From: Candidatus Heimdallarchaeota archaeon
Lineage (GTDB): Archaea; Asgardarchaeota; Heimdallarchaeia; Heimdallarchaeales; Heimdallarchaeaceae
Reading direction: 5' to 3'
NCBI GenBank assembly: GCA_021399345.1
Contig: JAAFKI010000045.1
Coordinates: 160,001-224,000 of the forward strand
Length of the DNA: 64,000 bases
The stretch's first letter is position 1. Each line of letters starts with the position of its first letter. A model generated the notes under the pieces. The model did no database searches. It worked only from the letters and a program-made list of their open reading frames with translations, and was not told the DNA's origin. Of the stretch, positions 46,553 to 54,649 are shown in pieces. Both the position numbers and the translations under genes were made by a program.

Positions 46553-47203
46553 GTGAAATTAGCATTTGTTTTCGCTCACCCTGATGATGAAGCTTTGAGT
46601 TCAGGTGGAACCATTGCTAAATATACTACTTTGGGACATGAAGTTAGTACTTTGTGTTTATCATCAGATTCCGTGCGAAAAGAGGAGTACTTTAACGCAA
46701 CCAAGATACTAGGAGTTCAAAAGCCTATAATTTTTGATTATCCAAATGTAGAAAGTAAAAAACAAGAGATAACAAAAGATTTCATTGATTATTTACTCAA
46801 TTTTAGGCCAGAAATCGTTGTCACTCATCTAGAAAATGATTATCACATCGACCATAGAGCAACTTACAGCATTGTTTTGGAAGGAATCGAATGGGCAGCT
46901 CATGAAACACAGCATAAGAACCCTCATCTTGTAAATAAATTATATGTTGTTGAAACTACAATCTTGATTCCAAATCCACATATTTTAGTTGATATTAGTG
47001 ATTATTATGATCAAAAAGAAGAAGCAATAAAATGCTATAAATCACAGCTTTCCAAAGGAGGGGATAATTTCTACATTAATTTTCATAAAAATAGAACACA
47101 GATGAGGGGAGCTCAAGCTTCAACAAAACATGCAGAGGCATTTCTTAAAGTTTCATTAAAGCAAAACAGCCCTTTTTATGAAAAGAAGCATTCAGAGCTT
47201 TAA
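46553..47203 (+). CDS. PIG-L/LmbE family deacetylase
   Basis: AHPDDE, GGTIA, R..E, DYHIDH, VDIS, K..AI.CYKSQ, AEAF. Confidence 0.9.
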   Translation: MKLAFVFAHPDDEALSSGGTIAKYTTLGHEVSTLCLSSDSVRKEEYFNATKILGVQKPIIFDYPNVESKKQEITKDFIDYLLNFRPEIVVTHLENDYHIDHRATYSIVLEGIEWAAHETQHKNPHLVNKLYVVETTILIPNPHILVDISDYYDQKEEAIKCYKSQLSKGGDNFYINFHKNRTQMRGAQASTKHAEAFLKVSLKQNSPFYEKKHSEL

Positions 47204-47237
47204 ACTGGTTGATTCAGGGAGAGAAATAAAAAAGATT

Positions 47238-47313
47238 TGGCGAGCCAGAACGGATTCGAACCGTCGACCAACTGCTCCGCAGGCAGCCATTCTATCCACT
47301 GAACTACTGGCTC
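47238..47313 (-). tRNA. tRNA-Arg(GCG), CCA encoded
   Basis: Reverse complement folds as GAGCCAG/CTGGCTC acceptor, anticodon loop CT-GCG-GA, TTCGAAT T-loop; 76 nt. Confidence 0.96.
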
Positions 47314-47385
47314 ATTTTATAGCTAAATCTAAACTGTTGTTTTCTAATACCCTCTCCTCTTTATATTTTTCGATTAAATATTAGT

Positions 47386-47934: not shown

Positions 47935-49137
47935 ATTACTGACATTACAGATAATCATAGAATTAAGGAGTTACTGAAGAGAATAAAGAACATGAGAAGA
48001 ATTGGATTAGATACATATATGCTACCAATCCAAGGTGCTGCTTCAAGCAAAGTGCTTATCGATGGTCAAGAATATTTAATGCTTGGTTCTTATAGTTACT
48101 TAGGACTCATAACCCATCCAGATATAATTCAAGCAGGTCATGAAGCTTTAGATAAATATGGTACTGGAGCGGGAGGGGTTAGATTATTAACAGGAACTAC
48201 AGATTTACATCGTTCACTGGAGAAAAAAATTGCTAGTTTTAAGAGGACTGAAGATGCTTTAGTTCTGAGCAGCGGTTACGTAACAAATATGACAGTAATA
48301 TCAACCTTGTTTGGGAAGGATGATTTGGTTGTAATTGACAAATATGATCATCAAAGTATTTATGATGGTTGTATTCTTTCAAAATCAGATTGGAAAAGGT
48401 TCAATCATAATGATATGGATGATTTATCGAGGGTTCTTGAAGAGAATAGAGAAAACTATAAACGTGTGATAGTTATTGTTGATGGAGTTTATAGTATGGA
48501 TGGAGACATAGCTCGAATGCCTGAGATTATCGAAATAGCAAAACAATATGATTCTTCAACAATGGTAGATGAAGCTCATTCAATTGGAACAGTGGGCCCA
48601 AATGGAAGAGGAGTTGATGACTATTTTGATCTTGAACCTGGTGCTGTCGATATCTACATGGGAACTTTAAGCAAAGCAATTCCATCAATTGGAGGGTATA
48701 TTGCTGCGAAAAAGGATGTGATTACTTATTTGAAATTCACTTCCAATGCGTTTATTTTTAGTGCAGCTCTTCCACCAGTTTCAACAGCAGTCGCTCTCAA
48801 AGCACTTGAGATTATTGAAACAGACAAAGATCGTATAAAATCCCTACAGAAAAACTATACTAAGTTCATTAATGGTGTTAAGGGAATAGGTTATGACACA
48901 TTAAAGAGCAAGGACACACCAATTGTTCCTGTTGTAATTGGAGATGATGTTAAAACATTTCGCTTTGCTAAGCAAATGAAAAAGGAAGGAATTTTAGTTC
49001 CACCAATTGTATTTCCTGCAGTTCCTAGAGACAAAGGAAGATTAAGATGTTGTGTTATGGCAACCCATACTGAAGAGGAAATCGATTATATTATAGAAAC
49101 CATGGAAAAAATAGGTAAAAGCCTAAAAGTTATCTAA
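47935..49137 (+). CDS. PLP-dependent alpha-oxoamine synthase (BioF/KBL/SPT family)
   Basis: GSYSYLGL, SGYVTN, HQSIYDG, FNHND, DGVYSMDGD, DEAH, GTLSKA; start ATT 47935 (after GAGGTGA) or ATG 47992. Confidence 0.9.
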   Translation: MTDITDNHRIKELLKRIKNMRRIGLDTYMLPIQGAASSKVLIDGQEYLMLGSYSYLGLITHPDIIQAGHEALDKYGTGAGGVRLLTGTTDLHRSLEKKIASFKRTEDALVLSSGYVTNMTVISTLFGKDDLVVIDKYDHQSIYDGCILSKSDWKRFNHNDMDDLSRVLEENRENYKRVIVIVDGVYSMDGDIARMPEIIEIAKQYDSSTMVDEAHSIGTVGPNGRGVDDYFDLEPGAVDIYMGTLSKAIPSIGGYIAAKKDVITYLKFTSNAFIFSAALPPVSTAVALKALEIIETDKDRIKSLQKNYTKFINGVKGIGYDTLKSKDTPIVPVVIGDDVKTFRFAKQMKKEGILVPPIVFPAVPRDKGRLRCCVMATHTEEEIDYIIETMEKIGKSLKVI

Positions 49138-49201
49138 ATTCTCATTTAGTAATTAGGAACTTTAACAGTTACATTTATCTACATTGAGCATATTTTCTAG
49201 A

Positions 49202-49529
49202 TGGACGAAGCGAAAGGGCAACTTTCGGCATATTGCTGAGGAACCTCCTGACTCCGAAAAACGATGTGGATGCAAATCCACCATATGAGAATATGGCTCT
49301 TGGAACAGAAACGAACGCCCCATTTTCGTAAACAATGATGCGATAAATAGAGTGGTAACATTTCTAGAAGTAAATTGCTGAGAAGAAATTGGGATACGAT
49401 GAAACGGCCAAACATTGTGGAGCAAGCTTAAGTAGAGTTCATATGAACTGGGTAAAGCGCTTAGATGAATGTTGCCAGGAAGATCCTAAAGGCTTCCGAA
49501 CAGAATCAGGGGTATTTCTGCATCGTCCA
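49202..49529 (+). ncRNA. rnpB: RNase P RNA (archaeal)
   Basis: P1 TGGACGA.../...TCGTCCA; CR-I GAGGAACCTCCTGA pairing with CR-V AACAGAATCAGGGGTAT (P4); ACAGAAAC, TGAAACGGC, GGAGCAAG, AGATGAAT in canonical order. Confidence 0.93.
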
Positions 49530-49534
49530 ACAAA

Positions 49535-49547
49535 TTTCTTTTTTTTT
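49535..49547 (+). terminator. Oligo-T terminator after rnpB
   Basis: TTTC followed by T9 immediately 3' of P1. Confidence 0.65.
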
Positions 49548-49627
49548 AGATGCTGAAAATTGCTTACAGTAAGTTTATTAAACCTCTTCTAAGATGTTAC
49601 TTCGAATAAAAAAATAGACGTGTATAA

Positions 49628-51388
49628 ATGCTTAGGAGGTTATCGAACAGTAGCATTCTATCTATACTTGTAGGATTTTCCCTTTTTATTACAATATTAA
49701 ATCCTGCATCTAATATAGCGATAGCTATGAAACCTCCTATAGGGGACAATTCTCAAATTATTTATCAGAGCTATGAAAATGCTACTTTCATTTTTTATCC
49801 ATATTTTGAAGAAATAACAAGAGGAGAGGATGACCTCAATCTAACCATGAAATTCTGTTATGAGAATATTACTTTGATTCCAGATTCAAACATTTATTAT
49901 AATATTACAAACATACTGGATGAAAAAATTTTCGAAGAGAAAGTATGGGTTAATACAACTGCAGAATTTAATCGTACAATTCCATGGCAGACATTTAATG
50001 GTCAAGATGATGGAAACTATACAATCACTGCTGTTGCGAATAGTACTACAACTACATCTTATAACATTACAACTTATTTTACTCTCATAGTTCCTGATTT
50101 TGGACAAGTAAGGATGTTCTTTCCATCAAATCCTGCATTTCTTATTAGGAATCAAGATAATCAAGTTTCATGTGTTATTTCGAATGTAGGTGGAACTACA
50201 GTAACTAATGTCTCAGTAACTAATGAAATTACAAAAACTGGAACAGTTGGTTCAATTACAAGATCTTATTCTATTTACAATTTAGAAATAGCTGAAGGAG
50301 CATTCCACGAAGATATAATAGGTTTTTATCCAGATACTTATCTCTATCAAAAACACTCTTTCACTATCACTTATCGAACAATAGGTGATCCAGAGACGCT
50401 TAGAGTGTATCTTAGTGACCCCATTAAAATAATTGTGATGCCCGATATTGTCGTTGAAAATTTTCAGTTACCAATAAATGTGACCATGGGAGAGAAATAT
50501 ATTATTACGACTAATATAAATAACAGTGAAGAAGAATCACTAATTATTATTCCAAAGATTGTTTGTGATCAAATCAGTTTTTATGATGAATCTGCTATAT
50601 CAATTCCAAAAGGTAATAATATAATCTCTATTTCAGGAACTCCTCTAGTAGATGGAGCATCTTCACTCTACTTTGGTTTTGATTTAGAATGGACTACTGT
50701 TTCTGAAACAAAGTGGTATTCTATCTTACTTTTTACACAGTATCAACTTATATATATCATTCCACTAGAAATCCCCCCCATTATTCTACATCCTGGTGTA
50801 TTTTTTGGTATTGTTTTTTCATCTCTTTTCATAGGATTAGCTTACTTTTCAAGAGATATTATACTTGGTATTGCTAGAAGAACTAGAACAACAAGTTCTC
50901 GGATTTTCCCTGAAGTTTCTTATCCTTTGGAAACAGTAATTCTTGATGGTTCAAATATTGCTTGGGAAGAGAAGAACGACTCTAACAAACCACAAATTAA
51001 CAACATTGAATCCATGATTAACCGATTGAGTAGAGCCAATTTTAAGAAAATTATAACTGTAGCGGACGCAGCATTACGCTATCAGATAGATGAACAAAAA
51101 AGATTAGACAGATTAGTTAAGGAAGGAGCTATGAAAATGTTACCCGCAAGAGTTGATGGAGACAAGTTCATTCTAAGGATAGCAGAAGAGGAAAATGCTA
51201 TGATTGTAAGTAATGATATGTTTAAGGAATTCAGAGAATCAACTCCCTGGATTGATGAAAGAAGGATCCCTTACACTATTTTAGATGGAGAAGTATACTT
51301 GCACCCAACTTCAGTTCTTCCCTCAATTGAAATAGGTAGTAAAGAGAATAAAGAGAGAAAAGAAAACGATAATACCTTTGAAACTTAA
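49628..51388 (+). CDS. Single-pass membrane protein with ectodomain and cytoplasmic Zc3h12a/Regnase-type NYN ribonuclease
   Basis: Signal peptide, beta-rich ectodomain with ~12 NxS/T sequons, TM GVFFGIVFSSLFIGLAYF, then VILDGSNIA, DAALRY, DGDKFIL, IVSNDMFKEF, RRIPY. Confidence 0.85.
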   Translation: MLRRLSNSSILSILVGFSLFITILNPASNIAIAMKPPIGDNSQIIYQSYENATFIFYPYFEEITRGEDDLNLTMKFCYENITLIPDSNIYYNITNILDEKIFEEKVWVNTTAEFNRTIPWQTFNGQDDGNYTITAVANSTTTTSYNITTYFTLIVPDFGQVRMFFPSNPAFLIRNQDNQVSCVISNVGGTTVTNVSVTNEITKTGTVGSITRSYSIYNLEIAEGAFHEDIIGFYPDTYLYQKHSFTITYRTIGDPETLRVYLSDPIKIIVMPDIVVENFQLPINVTMGEKYIITTNINNSEEESLIIIPKIVCDQISFYDESAISIPKGNNIISISGTPLVDGASSLYFGFDLEWTTVSETKWYSILLFTQYQLIYIIPLEIPPIILHPGVFFGIVFSSLFIGLAYFSRDIILGIARRTRTTSSRIFPEVSYPLETVILDGSNIAWEEKNDSNKPQINNIESMINRLSRANFKKIITVADAALRYQIDEQKRLDRLVKEGAMKMLPARVDGDKFILRIAEEENAMIVSNDMFKEFRESTPWIDERRIPYTILDGEVYLHPTSVLPSIEIGSKENKERKENDNTFET

Positions 51389-51459
51389 TTTTCTATAACA
51401 AAAATCTGATAAAACCAAGTCATTATAAAGTACTATGATTATATAATTTTGATAATACT

Positions 51460-52176
51460 ATGAATATGGACCAAGGATATCAAGATTTTTCTAACTTGAA
51501 AACAGGTTATAATGATAACATAAAGTTAGAAAATCTTCCAAAGGATTATTTCTATAGTACAGAATATGATTACATGACGCTACCAGAGGTCCAGTTATTA
51601 TTAACTTTGTCAGATTCGAATATCGCCTACAGTTTTTCAGGATTAAGAAAAACAACACTGCTGCATCAACATCAACTGGCTAAGGCTCTAAAGAGATTAA
51701 TTGATAGAAACTATCTATCCAAAAGAGACAATGGTACATATGAAACAACTAATACTGGTAGCAGATATACAACAGAATTAATCAAAGATCTAATCAGTAA
51801 TAAAGCAGTAAATATTCAGAATAATAGCTTTTACTCTCAGTGGAAAGAAATTCATCTAATTCCACCTCTAAAATCTGAATTATTAGTATCAGTTTTTGAA
51901 AAAAGATGGTTTGGAGGTTTTAGATTCCTATTCAAAAGAGAAAACAGAGATGGAACTGAGCTATGCTGGGAAGATAATGACAGTAATAGAGTCTACTTGT
52001 ATATTCAAAGAAGAGGTTCAATCAAATTTGAATATAGAGCTACTGTTCCTAGTTACAGTAAAATGGAAGAAGCTACAAACTGGATAAGTAATGAAATTCT
52101 AAATCTAGGTGAAGTTAATATAGAAATTGAAGATTATGAAATTGTTGACGATTTTGAGAAAAATACATACAATTAG
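51460..52176 (+). CDS. Winged-helix DNA-binding protein
   Basis: YSFSGLRKTTLLHQHQLAKALKRLIDRNYLSK..NGTYETTNTG. Confidence 0.7.
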   Translation: MNMDQGYQDFSNLKTGYNDNIKLENLPKDYFYSTEYDYMTLPEVQLLLTLSDSNIAYSFSGLRKTTLLHQHQLAKALKRLIDRNYLSKRDNGTYETTNTGSRYTTELIKDLISNKAVNIQNNSFYSQWKEIHLIPPLKSELLVSVFEKRWFGGFRFLFKRENRDGTELCWEDNDSNRVYLYIQRRGSIKFEYRATVPSYSKMEEATNWISNEILNLGEVNIEIEDYEIVDDFEKNTYN

Positions 52177-52239: not shown

Positions 52240-52905
52240 ATGAATAATCCGAATTTTAATGGAATGGGAAATAATAATCCATTTATGGATCCCAAGCACG
52301 GAACAACAACTGTTTCTGTAAGATTTAAAGGAGGAACAGTTGTAGCGGCAGATAGAAGAGCTTCTATGGGCAGTTTTATTGCTTCAAAGAAAGCTCAAAA
52401 AGTCCATGAACTTAATGAATTCACTGTTGCCACAATTGCTGGGTTGGTTTCAGATGCTCAATATCTGGTTCATCTGACAAGAGCTAATCTCAACCTATTC
52501 GAACTTGGTAGAGGATATGCTCCTACTACAAAAATGGCAGGTAATCTATTAGCCTCTATCATGTATGAACAATATAGGGCATATTTTCCATATTATGTCT
52601 CTATGATTGTTGCAGGTTTGGATAAAGATGGTCCTCATATCTATACTTTGGATATGGCAGGTGGAATCACAGAAGAAGACTTTGCTTCCACTGGTTCAGG
52701 TTCTCTAGTTGCCTATGGTGTTCTAGAATCAACCTGGAAAGATGGACTGACTGAAGCTGAAGGACTCAAAGTTACAATAACTGCTTTGGCTACAGCTATT
52801 AGTAGAGATGCAGCAACAGGTGATGGAATGGATGTTCTAGTAGTGAACAAAAAAGGTGTCAAAAGGATGGCATCTGATGAAGTAAAAGGTTACTTGGAGG
52901 CATAA
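52240..52905 (+). CDS. psmB: Proteasome beta subunit
   Basis: Propeptide then HG/TTTV, AADRRAS, SKKAQKV, AGLVSDAQ, STGSGS, RDAATGDG. Confidence 0.95.
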   Translation: MNNPNFNGMGNNNPFMDPKHGTTTVSVRFKGGTVVAADRRASMGSFIASKKAQKVHELNEFTVATIAGLVSDAQYLVHLTRANLNLFELGRGYAPTTKMAGNLLASIMYEQYRAYFPYYVSMIVAGLDKDGPHIYTLDMAGGITEEDFASTGSGSLVAYGVLESTWKDGLTEAEGLKVTITALATAISRDAATGDGMDVLVVNKKGVKRMASDEVKGYLEA

Positions 52906-52909
52906 GAAA

Positions 52910-53566
52910 ATGTTAGGACCACAATCAATGGGTTACGATAGATCACCTTTAATGTACTCTCCTGAAGGGCGTATCATTCAAACAGAATATGCTAGAGAAT
53001 CAGTTAGAAGAGGAAGTATAGCAATAGGAATTAAAAGTAAACACGGTGTTGTTTTAGCTGGATTGTTAAGAGTAGTGGATCTTAATGAACCTGATTTGAA
53101 AATCCATAAAATCTCTAATACTATTCAAGCAATTTTCGCAGGTGTTGCTGCTGATGGTCGTATTTTGATAAATCGAGCTCGCCTTGAAGCAGAAATATTC
53201 AAGCTAACATATGCTGTTCCAATGGATGTCAGAGGTTTAGCTGTTAAGACTGGCGACTATGTCCAGATGTTTACTCAACAAGGTGGATTAAGGCCTTTTG
53301 GAGTTGGAATGTTGTATGGAGGACTAGACGATACTGGATCAAGTTTACAATTTGTAGATCCTGGTGGTGGAGTAGTCTCTTGTAAAGCAAAAGCTATGGG
53401 TGAAGGAGATTCTGAAGCTATTGCTTATCTAAAGGAAAAATATTCTGATGAATTAACAACCGATGAAATGATTCAAATAGCTAAAGACGCTATTCACAAA
53501 GCTGCTAGAGATGTAGAATTAACAGATGACAACATAGCTATTGAAATTATGCCTTATGAGGCATAA
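52910..53566 (+). CDS. psmA: Proteasome alpha subunit
   Basis: GYDR....YSPEGRIIQTEYA, RGSIAIGI, GVAADGR, TQQGGLRPFGV, DPGG. Confidence 0.93.
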   Translation: MLGPQSMGYDRSPLMYSPEGRIIQTEYARESVRRGSIAIGIKSKHGVVLAGLLRVVDLNEPDLKIHKISNTIQAIFAGVAADGRILINRARLEAEIFKLTYAVPMDVRGLAVKTGDYVQMFTQQGGLRPFGVGMLYGGLDDTGSSLQFVDPGGGVVSCKAKAMGEGDSEAIAYLKEKYSDELTTDEMIQIAKDAIHKAARDVELTDDNIAIEIMPYEA

Positions 53567-53632
53567 TCTATCTTTTTCTATTTATTTACGCCAAATTTAT
53601 ATTCGCAAAACTTTATTTTTGTGAAGAGGATT

Positions 53633-54649
53633 ATGAAAGTTTTTCTGTCAAAAGCTATTAGAGTAAACGGAAAAGATTGGAAATTAGCTTGTGATAGTAC
53701 TAACTCACAACACTATCCTCTCGTTTTTTATAGTCATGCTCATTCAGACCATATCCCAAGAAAATTACCAAAAACAGATATAATAACATCACCCGTAACA
53801 AAGATTCTATTGAAGAATTTTGTGTCAAATTTTGATGATGGAAATTTCTTCGATTCTTACTCTATTGATGATGTTACTTTCAAACAAAAATCCAGCGGCC
53901 ATATTGTGGGCTCTACTGCATTGAAAATTGAATCTTCTGAAGGAAAACTAGTTTATACAGGAGATGTTTCAATACGAGATAAGGGATTCTTAGAACCTTT
54001 TTCACCAGAAAAGTGTGATATCTTAATCATTGAAAGTACATTTGGTTCGCCAGATTACGTCTTTCCATCTTATGATGGTGTTATAAAGGAAGCACAAGAA
54101 CAAATATCCCATTATTTGGATAACAATATCCCCGTAGTTTTGATGGGTTATGCCCTAGGAAAAGCACAAATGTTGTATAATGCTTTTTCCCATCTTTCTG
54201 AAAATATAGTTATGCATGGAGCTAATTTCAAGATTAATTCCCTACTTCTAGCTGAGAAAATTAAGGGAGCCATAACTGCAATGGATTATATCGAAGCAAA
54301 AGAATCTAATTTCCTTGGACAATCTAATAAATGGATTCTTTTTACACCTCTGAAATCTGGGCGAGATTTCTTTTTTTCTTATTTGAAGAAAAAATATAAC
54401 GCGAAATTGTTTGCATTCAGTGGTTGGGCAATATCAAGCAGCTATAAATTCAGAATGTCAGTTGATCATAGTTATCCTATAAGTGACCACGCTGATTACA
54501 ATGAATTATTAGAGATTTGCAAAAAAAGCAACCCAAATCAGATTTATACAATCTATGGACATACAACAAGATTTGCAGCAGAGTTAATAAAACATGGATT
54601 TAACGCAATACCCCTTTCTAAGCAGACTATACTAGATTCATTCTTCTAG
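53633..54649 (+). CDS. MBL-fold beta-CASP nuclease (SNM1/ligase-associated exonuclease-like)
   Basis: SHAHSDH, GHIVGS, YTGD, ESTFG.P, YALGKAQ, SGW, SDHADY. Confidence 0.88.
   Translation: MKVFLSKAIRVNGKDWKLACDSTNSQHYPLVFYSHAHSDHIPRKLPKTDIITSPVTKILLKNFVSNFDDGNFFDSYSIDDVTFKQKSSGHIVGSTALKIESSEGKLVYTGDVSIRDKGFLEPFSPEKCDILIIESTFGSPDYVFPSYDGVIKEAQEQISHYLDNNIPVVLMGYALGKAQMLYNAFSHLSENIVMHGANFKINSLLLAEKIKGAITAMDYIEAKESNFLGQSNKWILFTPLKSGRDFFFSYLKKKYNAKLFAFSGWAISSSYKFRMSVDHSYPISDHADYNELLEICKKSNPNQIYTIYGHTTRFAAELIKHGFNAIPLSKQTILDSFF

Follow-up and report, generated by a model that had tools for sequence, protein, structure and literature searches.

A receptor-like transmembrane protein with a cytoplasmic Zc3h12a-type NYN domain in the archaeal order Heimdallarchaeales

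Signalling that ends directly in the cleavage of RNA is known mainly from eukaryotic IRE1 and RNase L, and we know of no described prokaryotic transmembrane (TM) receptor with a ribonuclease (RNase) as its output. The eukaryotic proteins of the Regnase group, namely Regnase-1/MCPIP1 (ZC3H12A), ZC3H12B-D, KHNYN and N4BP1, are soluble and combine their catalytic domain of the PF11977 family with CCCH zinc fingers, KH or UBA domains. Here we describe a gene for a protein in which a domain of the same family and fold is joined to an ectodomain through a membrane helix. It lies on the forward strand of a stretch of 64,000 nucleotides (the window, that is, the whole stretch of DNA that was analysed; contig JAAFKI010000045.1, positions 160,001 to 224,000) from Candidatus Heimdallarchaeota archaeon, one of the Asgard archaea, which are the prokaryotic group nearest to eukaryotes. 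The protein is a real and so far undescribed architectural variant of a known nuclease family, in form resembling a receptor. The prokaryotic branch of PF11977, to which it is compared below, was reported to be evolutionarily separate, and its function in bacteria is listed as unknown (Matelska 2017, PMC5499597).

Architecture and membrane topology

The gene and the parts of its product are listed below (positions in the window, strand, and residues in amino acids, aa), together with the evidence used to delimit them.

49628..51388 (+): whole gene, a single-pass membrane protein with a cytoplasmic NYN domain; open reading frame (ORF) of 586 aa, stop codon included (ORF list and translation)
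49628..49726 (+): signal peptide, aa 1-33, composed of MLRR, a hydrophobic core and AIA, then M34 (hydropathy)
49781..50092 (+): ectodomain beta-sandwich domain 1, aa 52-155, which bears most of the conserved sequons (N80, N92, N138 and others) (AlphaFold2, AF2, model)
50093..50440 (+): ectodomain beta-sandwich domain 2, aa 156-271 (AF2 model; CARDB/TRAP_beta-like match weak and non-significant)
50441..50764 (+): ectodomain beta-sandwich domain 3, aa 272-379, which lies next to the membrane and varies more than the other two (AF2 model, sequon conservation, ratio of nonsynonymous to synonymous substitution rates, dN/dS)
50780..50854 (+): TM helix, aa 385-409, with the conserved interface motif YFSRD (406-410) at its end (hydropathy, model)
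50855..50932 (+): basic juxtamembrane helix extension and short linker, aa 410-435 (26 aa) (model)
50933..51313 (+): cytoplasmic Zc3h12a-type NYN (PIN-like) nuclease domain, aa 436-562 (Pfam, PDB sequence matches, AF2/Foldseek, conservation, dN/dS)
51314..51385 (+): C-terminal tail, aa 563-586, charged, of low complexity and not conserved (low predicted local distance difference test score, pLDDT; tail comparison; dN/dS about 1)

An initial annotation, made from the sequence of the window alone, had proposed at exactly these coordinates an ORF with a signal peptide, a beta-rich CARDB/Ig-like ectodomain of about 350 aa with about a dozen N-glycosylation sequons, one TM helix with a basic, positive-inside flank, and an NYN/PIN domain bearing the motifs DGSN, DGD and SND. 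Each of these parts was borne out by the analysis, and so was the view that we deal with an undescribed protein of an archaeal host: the host is archaeal, and no paper describing the NYN fusion protein was found in the literature.

Hydropathy reveals two hydrophobic stretches, the first at aa 5-33, ending in AIA before M34, and the second at about aa 385-409, followed by the basic RDIILGIARRTRTTSSR. The N-terminal hydrophobic segment is common to the family; we infer that it is cleaved after aa 33, and an uncleaved anchor would leave the topology of the remainder unchanged. An AlphaFold model of aa 34-383, based on 58 homologues, has pLDDT of 90.7 and consists of three consecutive beta-sandwich domains, so that the 350-aa ectodomain contains three domains of this kind, with 12 sequons. 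The total number of NxS/T sequons in the protein is 14, of which 12 fall within aa 51-300, while the signal peptide and the NYN domain contain one each. Membership of the CARDB family by sequence had to be rejected, since the Pfam match is not significant (E 0.66), and the likeness to CARDB/Ig proteins is one of fold only. Comparison of the modelled ectodomain with PDB by Foldseek returned only generic tandem Ig/MG-like proteins, and its nearest neighbours in the ESM Atlas are archaeal and bacterial surface proteins of the CARDB/NPCBM_assoc kind.

The orientation in the membrane was assessed on 80 family members. Sequons occur at 3.24 per 100 aa outside and at 0.31 inside, with 1.54 and 0.57, respectively, predicted from composition, and the mean number of lysines and arginines within 15 aa of the TM helix is 0.36 on the outer side and 3.74 on the inner side. 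The positive-inside rule is obeyed by 77 of the 80 proteins. Among 58 members, nine positions bear a sequon in 60% or more of the proteins, and the one at N138 is universal (58/58). The distance between the end of the TM helix and the catalytic Asp has a median of 32 aa and mostly falls between 26 and 39 aa across the family (one outlier of 61 aa, P0056, may reflect TM misassignment), unlike the length of the C-terminal tail, which varies from 3 to 44 aa. The density of sequons, the charge bias, the conserved sequons and the near-constant spacing between the membrane and the catalytic Asp together assign the NYN domain to the cytoplasmic side, near the membrane. Neither an NYN domain exposed outside the cell nor a fusion absent from relatives agrees with these data, as the fusion is kept in the relatives. 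An AF2 model of aa 385-586 (pLDDT 87.5, and above 93 through most of the NYN core) has a single long helix at aa 389-422, made up of the TM segment and an extension into the cytoplasm, which a short linker connects to a compact alpha/beta domain.

The NYN domain, its active site and its occurrence

The assignment of the cytoplasmic domain to the Zc3h12a type was upheld by the RNase_Zc3h12a profile PF11977, which matches aa 434-553 with E of 3.5e-18 and 66.2 bits (cut-off 23), over profile positions 2-135 of 154; in a profile scan of the source genome the protein scores 69.8 bits and represents the single PF11977 copy. The top 22 Foldseek matches of the modelled domain in PDB are structures of ZC3H12C, ZC3H12B, ZC3H12A (Regnase-1/MCPIP1) and KHNYN, with target template-modelling scores of 0.57-0.72 (the best about 0.7) and a root-mean-square deviation of mostly 2.4-5.0 Å (6.6 Å for one KHNYN chain). 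PRORP structures come next, as weaker fold matches (E 4e-6 and above).

The motifs DGSN (440-443), DGD (510-512) and SND (528-530) are all kept, and the acidic and polar residues of the site are D440, N443, D480, D512, S528, N529, D530 and E534. In an NYN alignment of 154 sequences, comprising 41 members of the Heimdallarchaeales clade and 113 other relatives, D440, N443, D480, D512, N529 and D530 are invariant in the clade (41/41), five of them (all except D480) being residues of the three motifs, and E534 is kept in 39 of the 41. In a profile-to-PDB alignment D440 falls on the Asp that is replaced by Asn in 7ndk, the 'PIN catalytic mutant' of ZC3H12C, D512 falls on the latter Asp of the DD pair, and S528-N529-D530 fall on SND. 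It was shown previously that D141, D225, D226 and D244 of MCPIP1 are each essential, and that D226 is a direct ligand of Mg2+ (PMC3413151). Equivalents of most of these residues are present here: D440 corresponds to D141, D512 to D226, D530 to D244, and E534 to the acidic residue at D248. The position of D225 is occupied by Ala in 84 of the 113 other relatives, and D480, which belongs to the motif DAxLR[YH], is found in 91 of them. The comparison with Regnase made in the initial annotation therefore stood only partly: the domain family, DGSN, SND and the Mg2+-ligand Asp are shared, but the Asp equivalent to D225 is absent, D480 apparently being in its place. Since the domain keeps the complete acidic set of the prokaryotic PF11977 branch, it is likely to be catalytically competent, and RNase activity appears probable from homology. 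Conservation is not limited to the active site but extends over nearly the whole surface of the NYN domain, and W446, R517, P548 and H559 are invariant residues specific to the clade.

A search of 5.8 billion proteins returned 65 homologues of 455-648 aa, plus partial records; the named ones among them belong to Heimdallarchaeota/Heimdallarchaeaceae, with the sole exception of one partial record labelled Thorarchaeota. When the NYN domain alone was used in an exhaustive search, 32 representatives were obtained at E below 1e-30. In those of full length, DGSN follows the TM helix at a distance of about 32 aa, and the ectodomain bears 9-15 sequons. Below these representatives there is a sharp drop, at about 38% identity, to soluble NYN proteins. 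A survey of 400 genomes of the phylum detected the protein at full length in 26 of the 30 from its own family, as well as in 13 of the 16 that represent three sister families within the order. Outside these families the full-length fusion was not found, the NYN matches there being at the domain level and to other architectures only. The fused proteins, along with five short fragments, form one clade in the NYN tree (Shimodaira-Hasegawa-like approximate likelihood-ratio test, SH-aLRT, 99). The only eukaryotic sequence in this tree, and among the best 150 matches, is a long-branch N4BP1 (node SH-aLRT 78), and with this single sequence a specific sister relation between the Heimdall proteins and eukaryotes was not seen. 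All 45 homologues of the ectodomain carry the NYN domain, except for one record marked partial. Reuse of the ectodomain with other cytoplasmic domains was considered and rejected, as no such protein occurs among the 45, and no paralogue of the ectodomain was found in the source genome.

Nei-Gojobori estimates of dN/dS between orthologues are 0.01-0.04 for the NYN domain and 0.08-0.5 for the Ig-like domains, where a single noisy value exceeds 1 (domain 2 in the comparison L017-L018, 2.8 at dS of 0.026). Purifying selection on the NYN domain is very strong, the ectodomain is less constrained, and both halves of the protein are functional. The C-terminal tail has dN/dS of about 1, and a candidate docking motif at its very end (F-E/D-x) was dropped, being present in only 16 of 88 tails. 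A chance ORF is ruled out by more than 80 full-length homologues from independent assemblies with the same layout, and by dN/dS far below 1 in every folded domain. We regard the domain architecture, the topology, the conservation of the active site, the vertical inheritance as a single-copy gene inside one order, and the degree of selective constraint as firmly established.

Membrane tethering of the NYN RNase domain recurs in archaea, and forms with other ectodomains turned up outside the order. In Promethearchaeota (P0223, P0155, P0232, P0233) the signal peptide precedes a PQQ-like beta-propeller, which bears eight sequons, and a TM helix leads on to a PF11977 NYN domain. Thermofilaceae metagenome-assembled genomes (MAGs) encode proteins (P0112, P0222) with a signal peptide, about 220 aa, a TM segment with a basic inside flank and NYN. 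Other membrane forms comprise a simple N-terminal anchor with NYN and no ectodomain (P0186), a two-TM hairpin with NYN (P0228 from Hodarchaeales, and P0141 and P0165 from a Heimdallarchaeota MAG; one of them with a weak Prok-RING match), and five TM helices with NYN; P0135 is also listed among the membrane forms. The PQQ-like type of propeller is found on Ser/Thr kinase domains as well (P0318, P0326; Pkinase Pfam entries). Two metagenomic proteins of about 900 aa (P0102, P0151) carry PF11977 NYN at the C-terminus of a STAND/AAA_16-type NTPase, a layout that resembles the sensor-effector proteins of conflict systems.

The P0223 group and P0112 share with the Heimdall protein the signal peptide, extracellular module, one TM helix and cytoplasmic PF11977 domain, in the same order, and their TM flanks contain about 3 lysines and arginines inside and 2 outside, and 5 inside and 3 outside, respectively. 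They differ in having unrelated ectodomains (the PQQ-like beta-propeller and the unassigned 220-aa region) and in being represented by a few clusters only. As they are rare and the NYN tree puts them outside the Heimdall clade, independent fusions are probable for the P0223 type and may also account for P0112. One output domain placed behind different extracellular modules is the pattern of a receptor family, which makes a sensor function of the Heimdall protein likelier; the modularity of NYN suggests, short of proof, a combination of sensor and output.

Genomic surroundings

Directly upstream of the gene lies the archaeal RNase P RNA gene, which is separate from it:

49206..49525 (+): rnpB, archaeal RNase P RNA (Rfam RF00373, 151.8 bits)

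The end of rnpB is separated by 102 nucleotides (nt) from the NYN ORF on the same strand. This gap contains a T-run at 49535-49547, just after rnpB, and the TATA-like TTTATTAAA at 49574-49582, about 50 nt before the start codon of the NYN gene. Metatranscriptome contigs of four runs, each from a different study, were compared with positions 49150-51450; near-identical RNA contigs cover rnpB and stop at its Rfam borders, and in one run adapter sequence follows directly beyond the border. The adjacency is seen in the window and in two family members, and it is absent from 11 loci of sister families of the order. The RNA contigs that stop at the borders, the T-run, the TATA-like element and the local character of the adjacency indicate that rnpB is a separate unit, linked to the NYN gene by local synteny. 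Co-transcription or a functional link with rnpB was therefore rejected as a general feature.

Just upstream of rnpB, and likewise in locus L004, a 381-aa protein of class I/II aminotransferase fold is encoded (47992-49137 (+); PF00155, E 2e-55). Downstream of the NYN gene there follow a gene for a 238-aa protein with a weak MarR/SarA-like winged helix at aa 38-106 and a C-terminal half without assignment (51460-52176 (+)), and the co-oriented genes for the beta and alpha subunits of the proteasome (52240-53566 (+)), whose synteny is kept in L001 and L004. Within the own family the winged-helix gene and the proteasome pair adjoin the NYN gene in either orientation, and in one sister-family genome (L010) they are rearranged. 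In other subclades the neighbour is an alkaline phosphatase, a MOFRL/DUF4147 protein or a PIN-like 605-aa protein. The last of these, conserved in one sister subclade and showing a weak N-terminal PIN-like match, is encoded directly upstream of the NYN gene (L013, 4340-6154 (+); homologues in L009, L012 and L014). No neighbour is universal across the order, and a conserved operon partner was accordingly rejected.

Further downstream in the window, at 53621-54649 (+), a 342-aa metallo-beta-lactamase/RMMBL protein is encoded, which in NCBIfam comes closest to TIGR04122, the ligase-associated DNA damage response exonuclease (138 bits, cut-off 325), with weaker matches to aCPSF1-type beta-CASP RNases. 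A tRNA gene is located at 47241-47313 (-) (Rfam, 65.5 bits), and a 68-aa ORF on the opposite strand, at 47178-47384, is only its mirror reading. The neighbours at the locus (rnpB, the winged-helix protein, proteasome subunits, aminotransferase and a PIG-L protein) do not form a defence island, and the NYN fusion protein itself has no match in PADLOC-DB or in NCBIfam.

Possible function and comparison with known systems

The explanation that best accounts for these observations, with a probability of about 0.45 in our estimate, is a receptor-like TM glycoprotein with an NYN RNase coupled to its ectodomain. The protein would be a type I membrane glycoprotein with three Ig/CARDB-like domains directed outward, and the single TM helix together with the short near-constant linker would hold a metal-dependent Zc3h12a-type NYN endoribonuclease at the cytoplasmic face of the membrane. 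RNA would most likely be cut near the membrane, for instance mRNAs under translation there, the substrate being a guess. The activity would probably be coupled to the dedicated ectodomain, most plausibly by ectodomain-driven clustering of the RNase domains, and the result would be a one-protein outside-in device with an RNase as its output. The coupling of NYN activity to an outside signal, proposed on the basis of the architecture and of the modular reuse of NYN, is a tentative element for which we would not claim even odds; in its favour, the ectodomain, which is conserved and subject to purifying selection, is dedicated to this protein. The one-component system put forward in the initial annotation, in which cytoplasmic cleavage of RNA would answer an extracellular cue, is a hypothesis of this kind. 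A broader proposal, unlikely as it may be in its entirety, is that the Zc3h12a-type NYN domain serves as the output module of an unrecognised class of archaeal TM receptors, with the Heimdallarchaeales protein as its order-wide representative. An extracellular cue, or contact with a cell or the envelope, would then cluster the ectodomains and activate the cleavage of RNA on the cytoplasmic side of the membrane, in an Asgard pathway that uses a Regnase-type domain and resembles that of IRE1 and regulated IRE1-dependent decay (RIDD).

Several points weigh against an ectodomain-coupled RNase. The modelled fold of the ectodomain is generic among archaeal surface proteins and so would not require a sensor role. 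Neither a regulatory domain nor a ligand was found for the NYN fusion protein, and no partner gene conserved across the order was found in the compared loci. In the metatranscriptomes the ORF is touched only by one RNA contig of 151 nt and depth 2, which has nine differences and probably comes from a relative. The position of MCPIP1 D225 is Gly in this protein and Gly or Ala in all 41 clade members; D480 may stand in for it, a replacement which is itself inferred from the alignment. To our knowledge, biochemical evidence does not exist for any prokaryotic member of PF11977. Finally, a core, housekeeping-like gene could equally encode a constitutive enzyme.

This last point leads to the main rival explanation, a constitutive, membrane-tethered housekeeping RNase engaged in local turnover or processing of RNA, as are RNase Y or membrane-bound RNase E, in which the ectodomain would provide anchoring, envelope integration or positioning and send no signal. 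The gene is present as a single copy in most genomes of the order, dN/dS of its NYN domain is typical of core enzymes, its neighbours are housekeeping genes (rnpB, the proteasome pair, the aminotransferase), and the anchor-only P0186 shows that membrane placement alone is selected. However, a three-domain ectodomain of 350 aa with conserved sequons far exceeds the needs of an anchor, is under purifying selection and never occurs without NYN; moreover, the near-constant length of the linker suggests a defined geometry, and other lineages join different ectodomains to the same NYN output. We consider an enzyme that is only tethered to be possible, though rather unlikely. It is less probable still that the NYN domain is non-catalytic and serves to bind RNA or a partner protein (membrane-bound ribosomes, for example), the whole protein being a scaffold or surface protein. 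The lack of the equivalent of D225, which is essential in MCPIP1, and the conservation of nearly the whole surface, which fits many binding contacts, could be read in this manner. Inactive PIN-like domains, on the other hand, usually lose their acidic residues, and here D440, D480, D512 and D530 are invariant, E534 is nearly so, and D512 preserves the Mg2+ ligand of MCPIP1; a non-catalytic role thus fits poorly.

The least probable of the alternatives, which we find very hard to favour, is an antiviral or abortive-infection sensor, with the ectodomain detecting attachment of a virus or damage to the envelope and the NYN domain degrading cellular or viral RNA. The eukaryotic relatives Regnase-1, KHNYN and N4BP1 act on viral RNA (PMC5499597; PMC13084044), PF11977 NYN is found at the C-terminus of the STAND/AAA_16 NTPases mentioned above, an architecture typical of conflict systems, and the ectodomain evolves about ten times faster than NYN. 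The initial annotation had named a virus and envelope stress among the possible cues, but this defence flavour is disfavoured by the results: a core gene inherited vertically in single copy, in family-wide synteny among housekeeping genes, outside any defence island and without a PADLOC match fits such a role poorly. Furthermore, dN/dS of the ectodomain is below 1 in all but the one noisy comparison, and there is no consistent sign of diversifying selection.

The layout described here is a strongly conserved core feature of one Asgard order, and the same NYN output stands behind at least two other kinds of archaeal ectodomain. If ectodomain and RNase are indeed coupled, the protein would represent a new class of output in archaeal signalling, and would allow RNA decay that depends on a signal and takes place at the membrane to be studied in a simple form in the archaea that stand nearest to eukaryotes. 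Were the protein simply a tethered housekeeping RNase, it would still add to archaea a membrane-bound enzyme of RNA decay, a kind of which they have no well-characterised example, and would offer the first testable function for the prokaryotic PF11977 branch.

Among the described proteins, those of the prokaryotic PF11977 branch have 35-40% identity to the Heimdall protein in the NYN domain and share with the Heimdall clade the DAxLR[HY] signature with D480 and Ala or Gly at the position of D225. They are mostly soluble proteins of 130-230 aa or are fused to cytoplasmic modules; in the Heimdall clade three Ig-like domains, with a signal peptide before them and a TM helix after them, precede NYN. 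From the eukaryotic Regnase group the protein keeps the DGSN Asp, the Mg2+-ligand Asp, the SND Asp and the acidic residue at the D248 position, and a C-terminal beta-hairpin segment can be aligned as well (RRIPYT...YLHP versus ERLLxYSF...FMxP). It differs from that group in the Gly/Ala equivalent of D225 and in the additional invariant D480. Where those soluble proteins have zinc fingers, KH or UBA domains, it carries an ectodomain behind a signal peptide, and a TM helix, and its cytoplasmic part is free of cysteine; no Regnase/MCPIP-type CCCH zinc finger was found by Pfam after NYN, where only the 24-aa charged tail follows. Pfam likewise gave no PPR (pentatricopeptide repeat) or PRORP match, that is, neither the PPR repeats nor the zinc module which precede NYN in PRORP.

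RNase Y, RNase E and the four-TM PIN-TRAM proteins (PIN.COG4956, noted in PMC5499597) resemble the Heimdall protein in that a nuclease is located at the cytoplasmic face of the membrane. Their catalytic families are different from NYN (HD, RNase E and VapC-like PIN, respectively) and, unlike the protein described here, they have anchors only, with no large extracellular domain. The resemblance to IRE1 is one of layout and does not extend to the catalytic part, as kinase and KEN domains were not found by Pfam in the Heimdall protein, in which the cytoplasmic portion consists of PF11977 only; a counterpart of the activation of IRE1 by oligomerisation would be putative. What the two have in common is the arrangement: a sensor or sensor-like domain outside the cytoplasm, one TM helix, and a cytoplasmic RNase, predicted as such in the archaeal protein, near membrane-bound translation.

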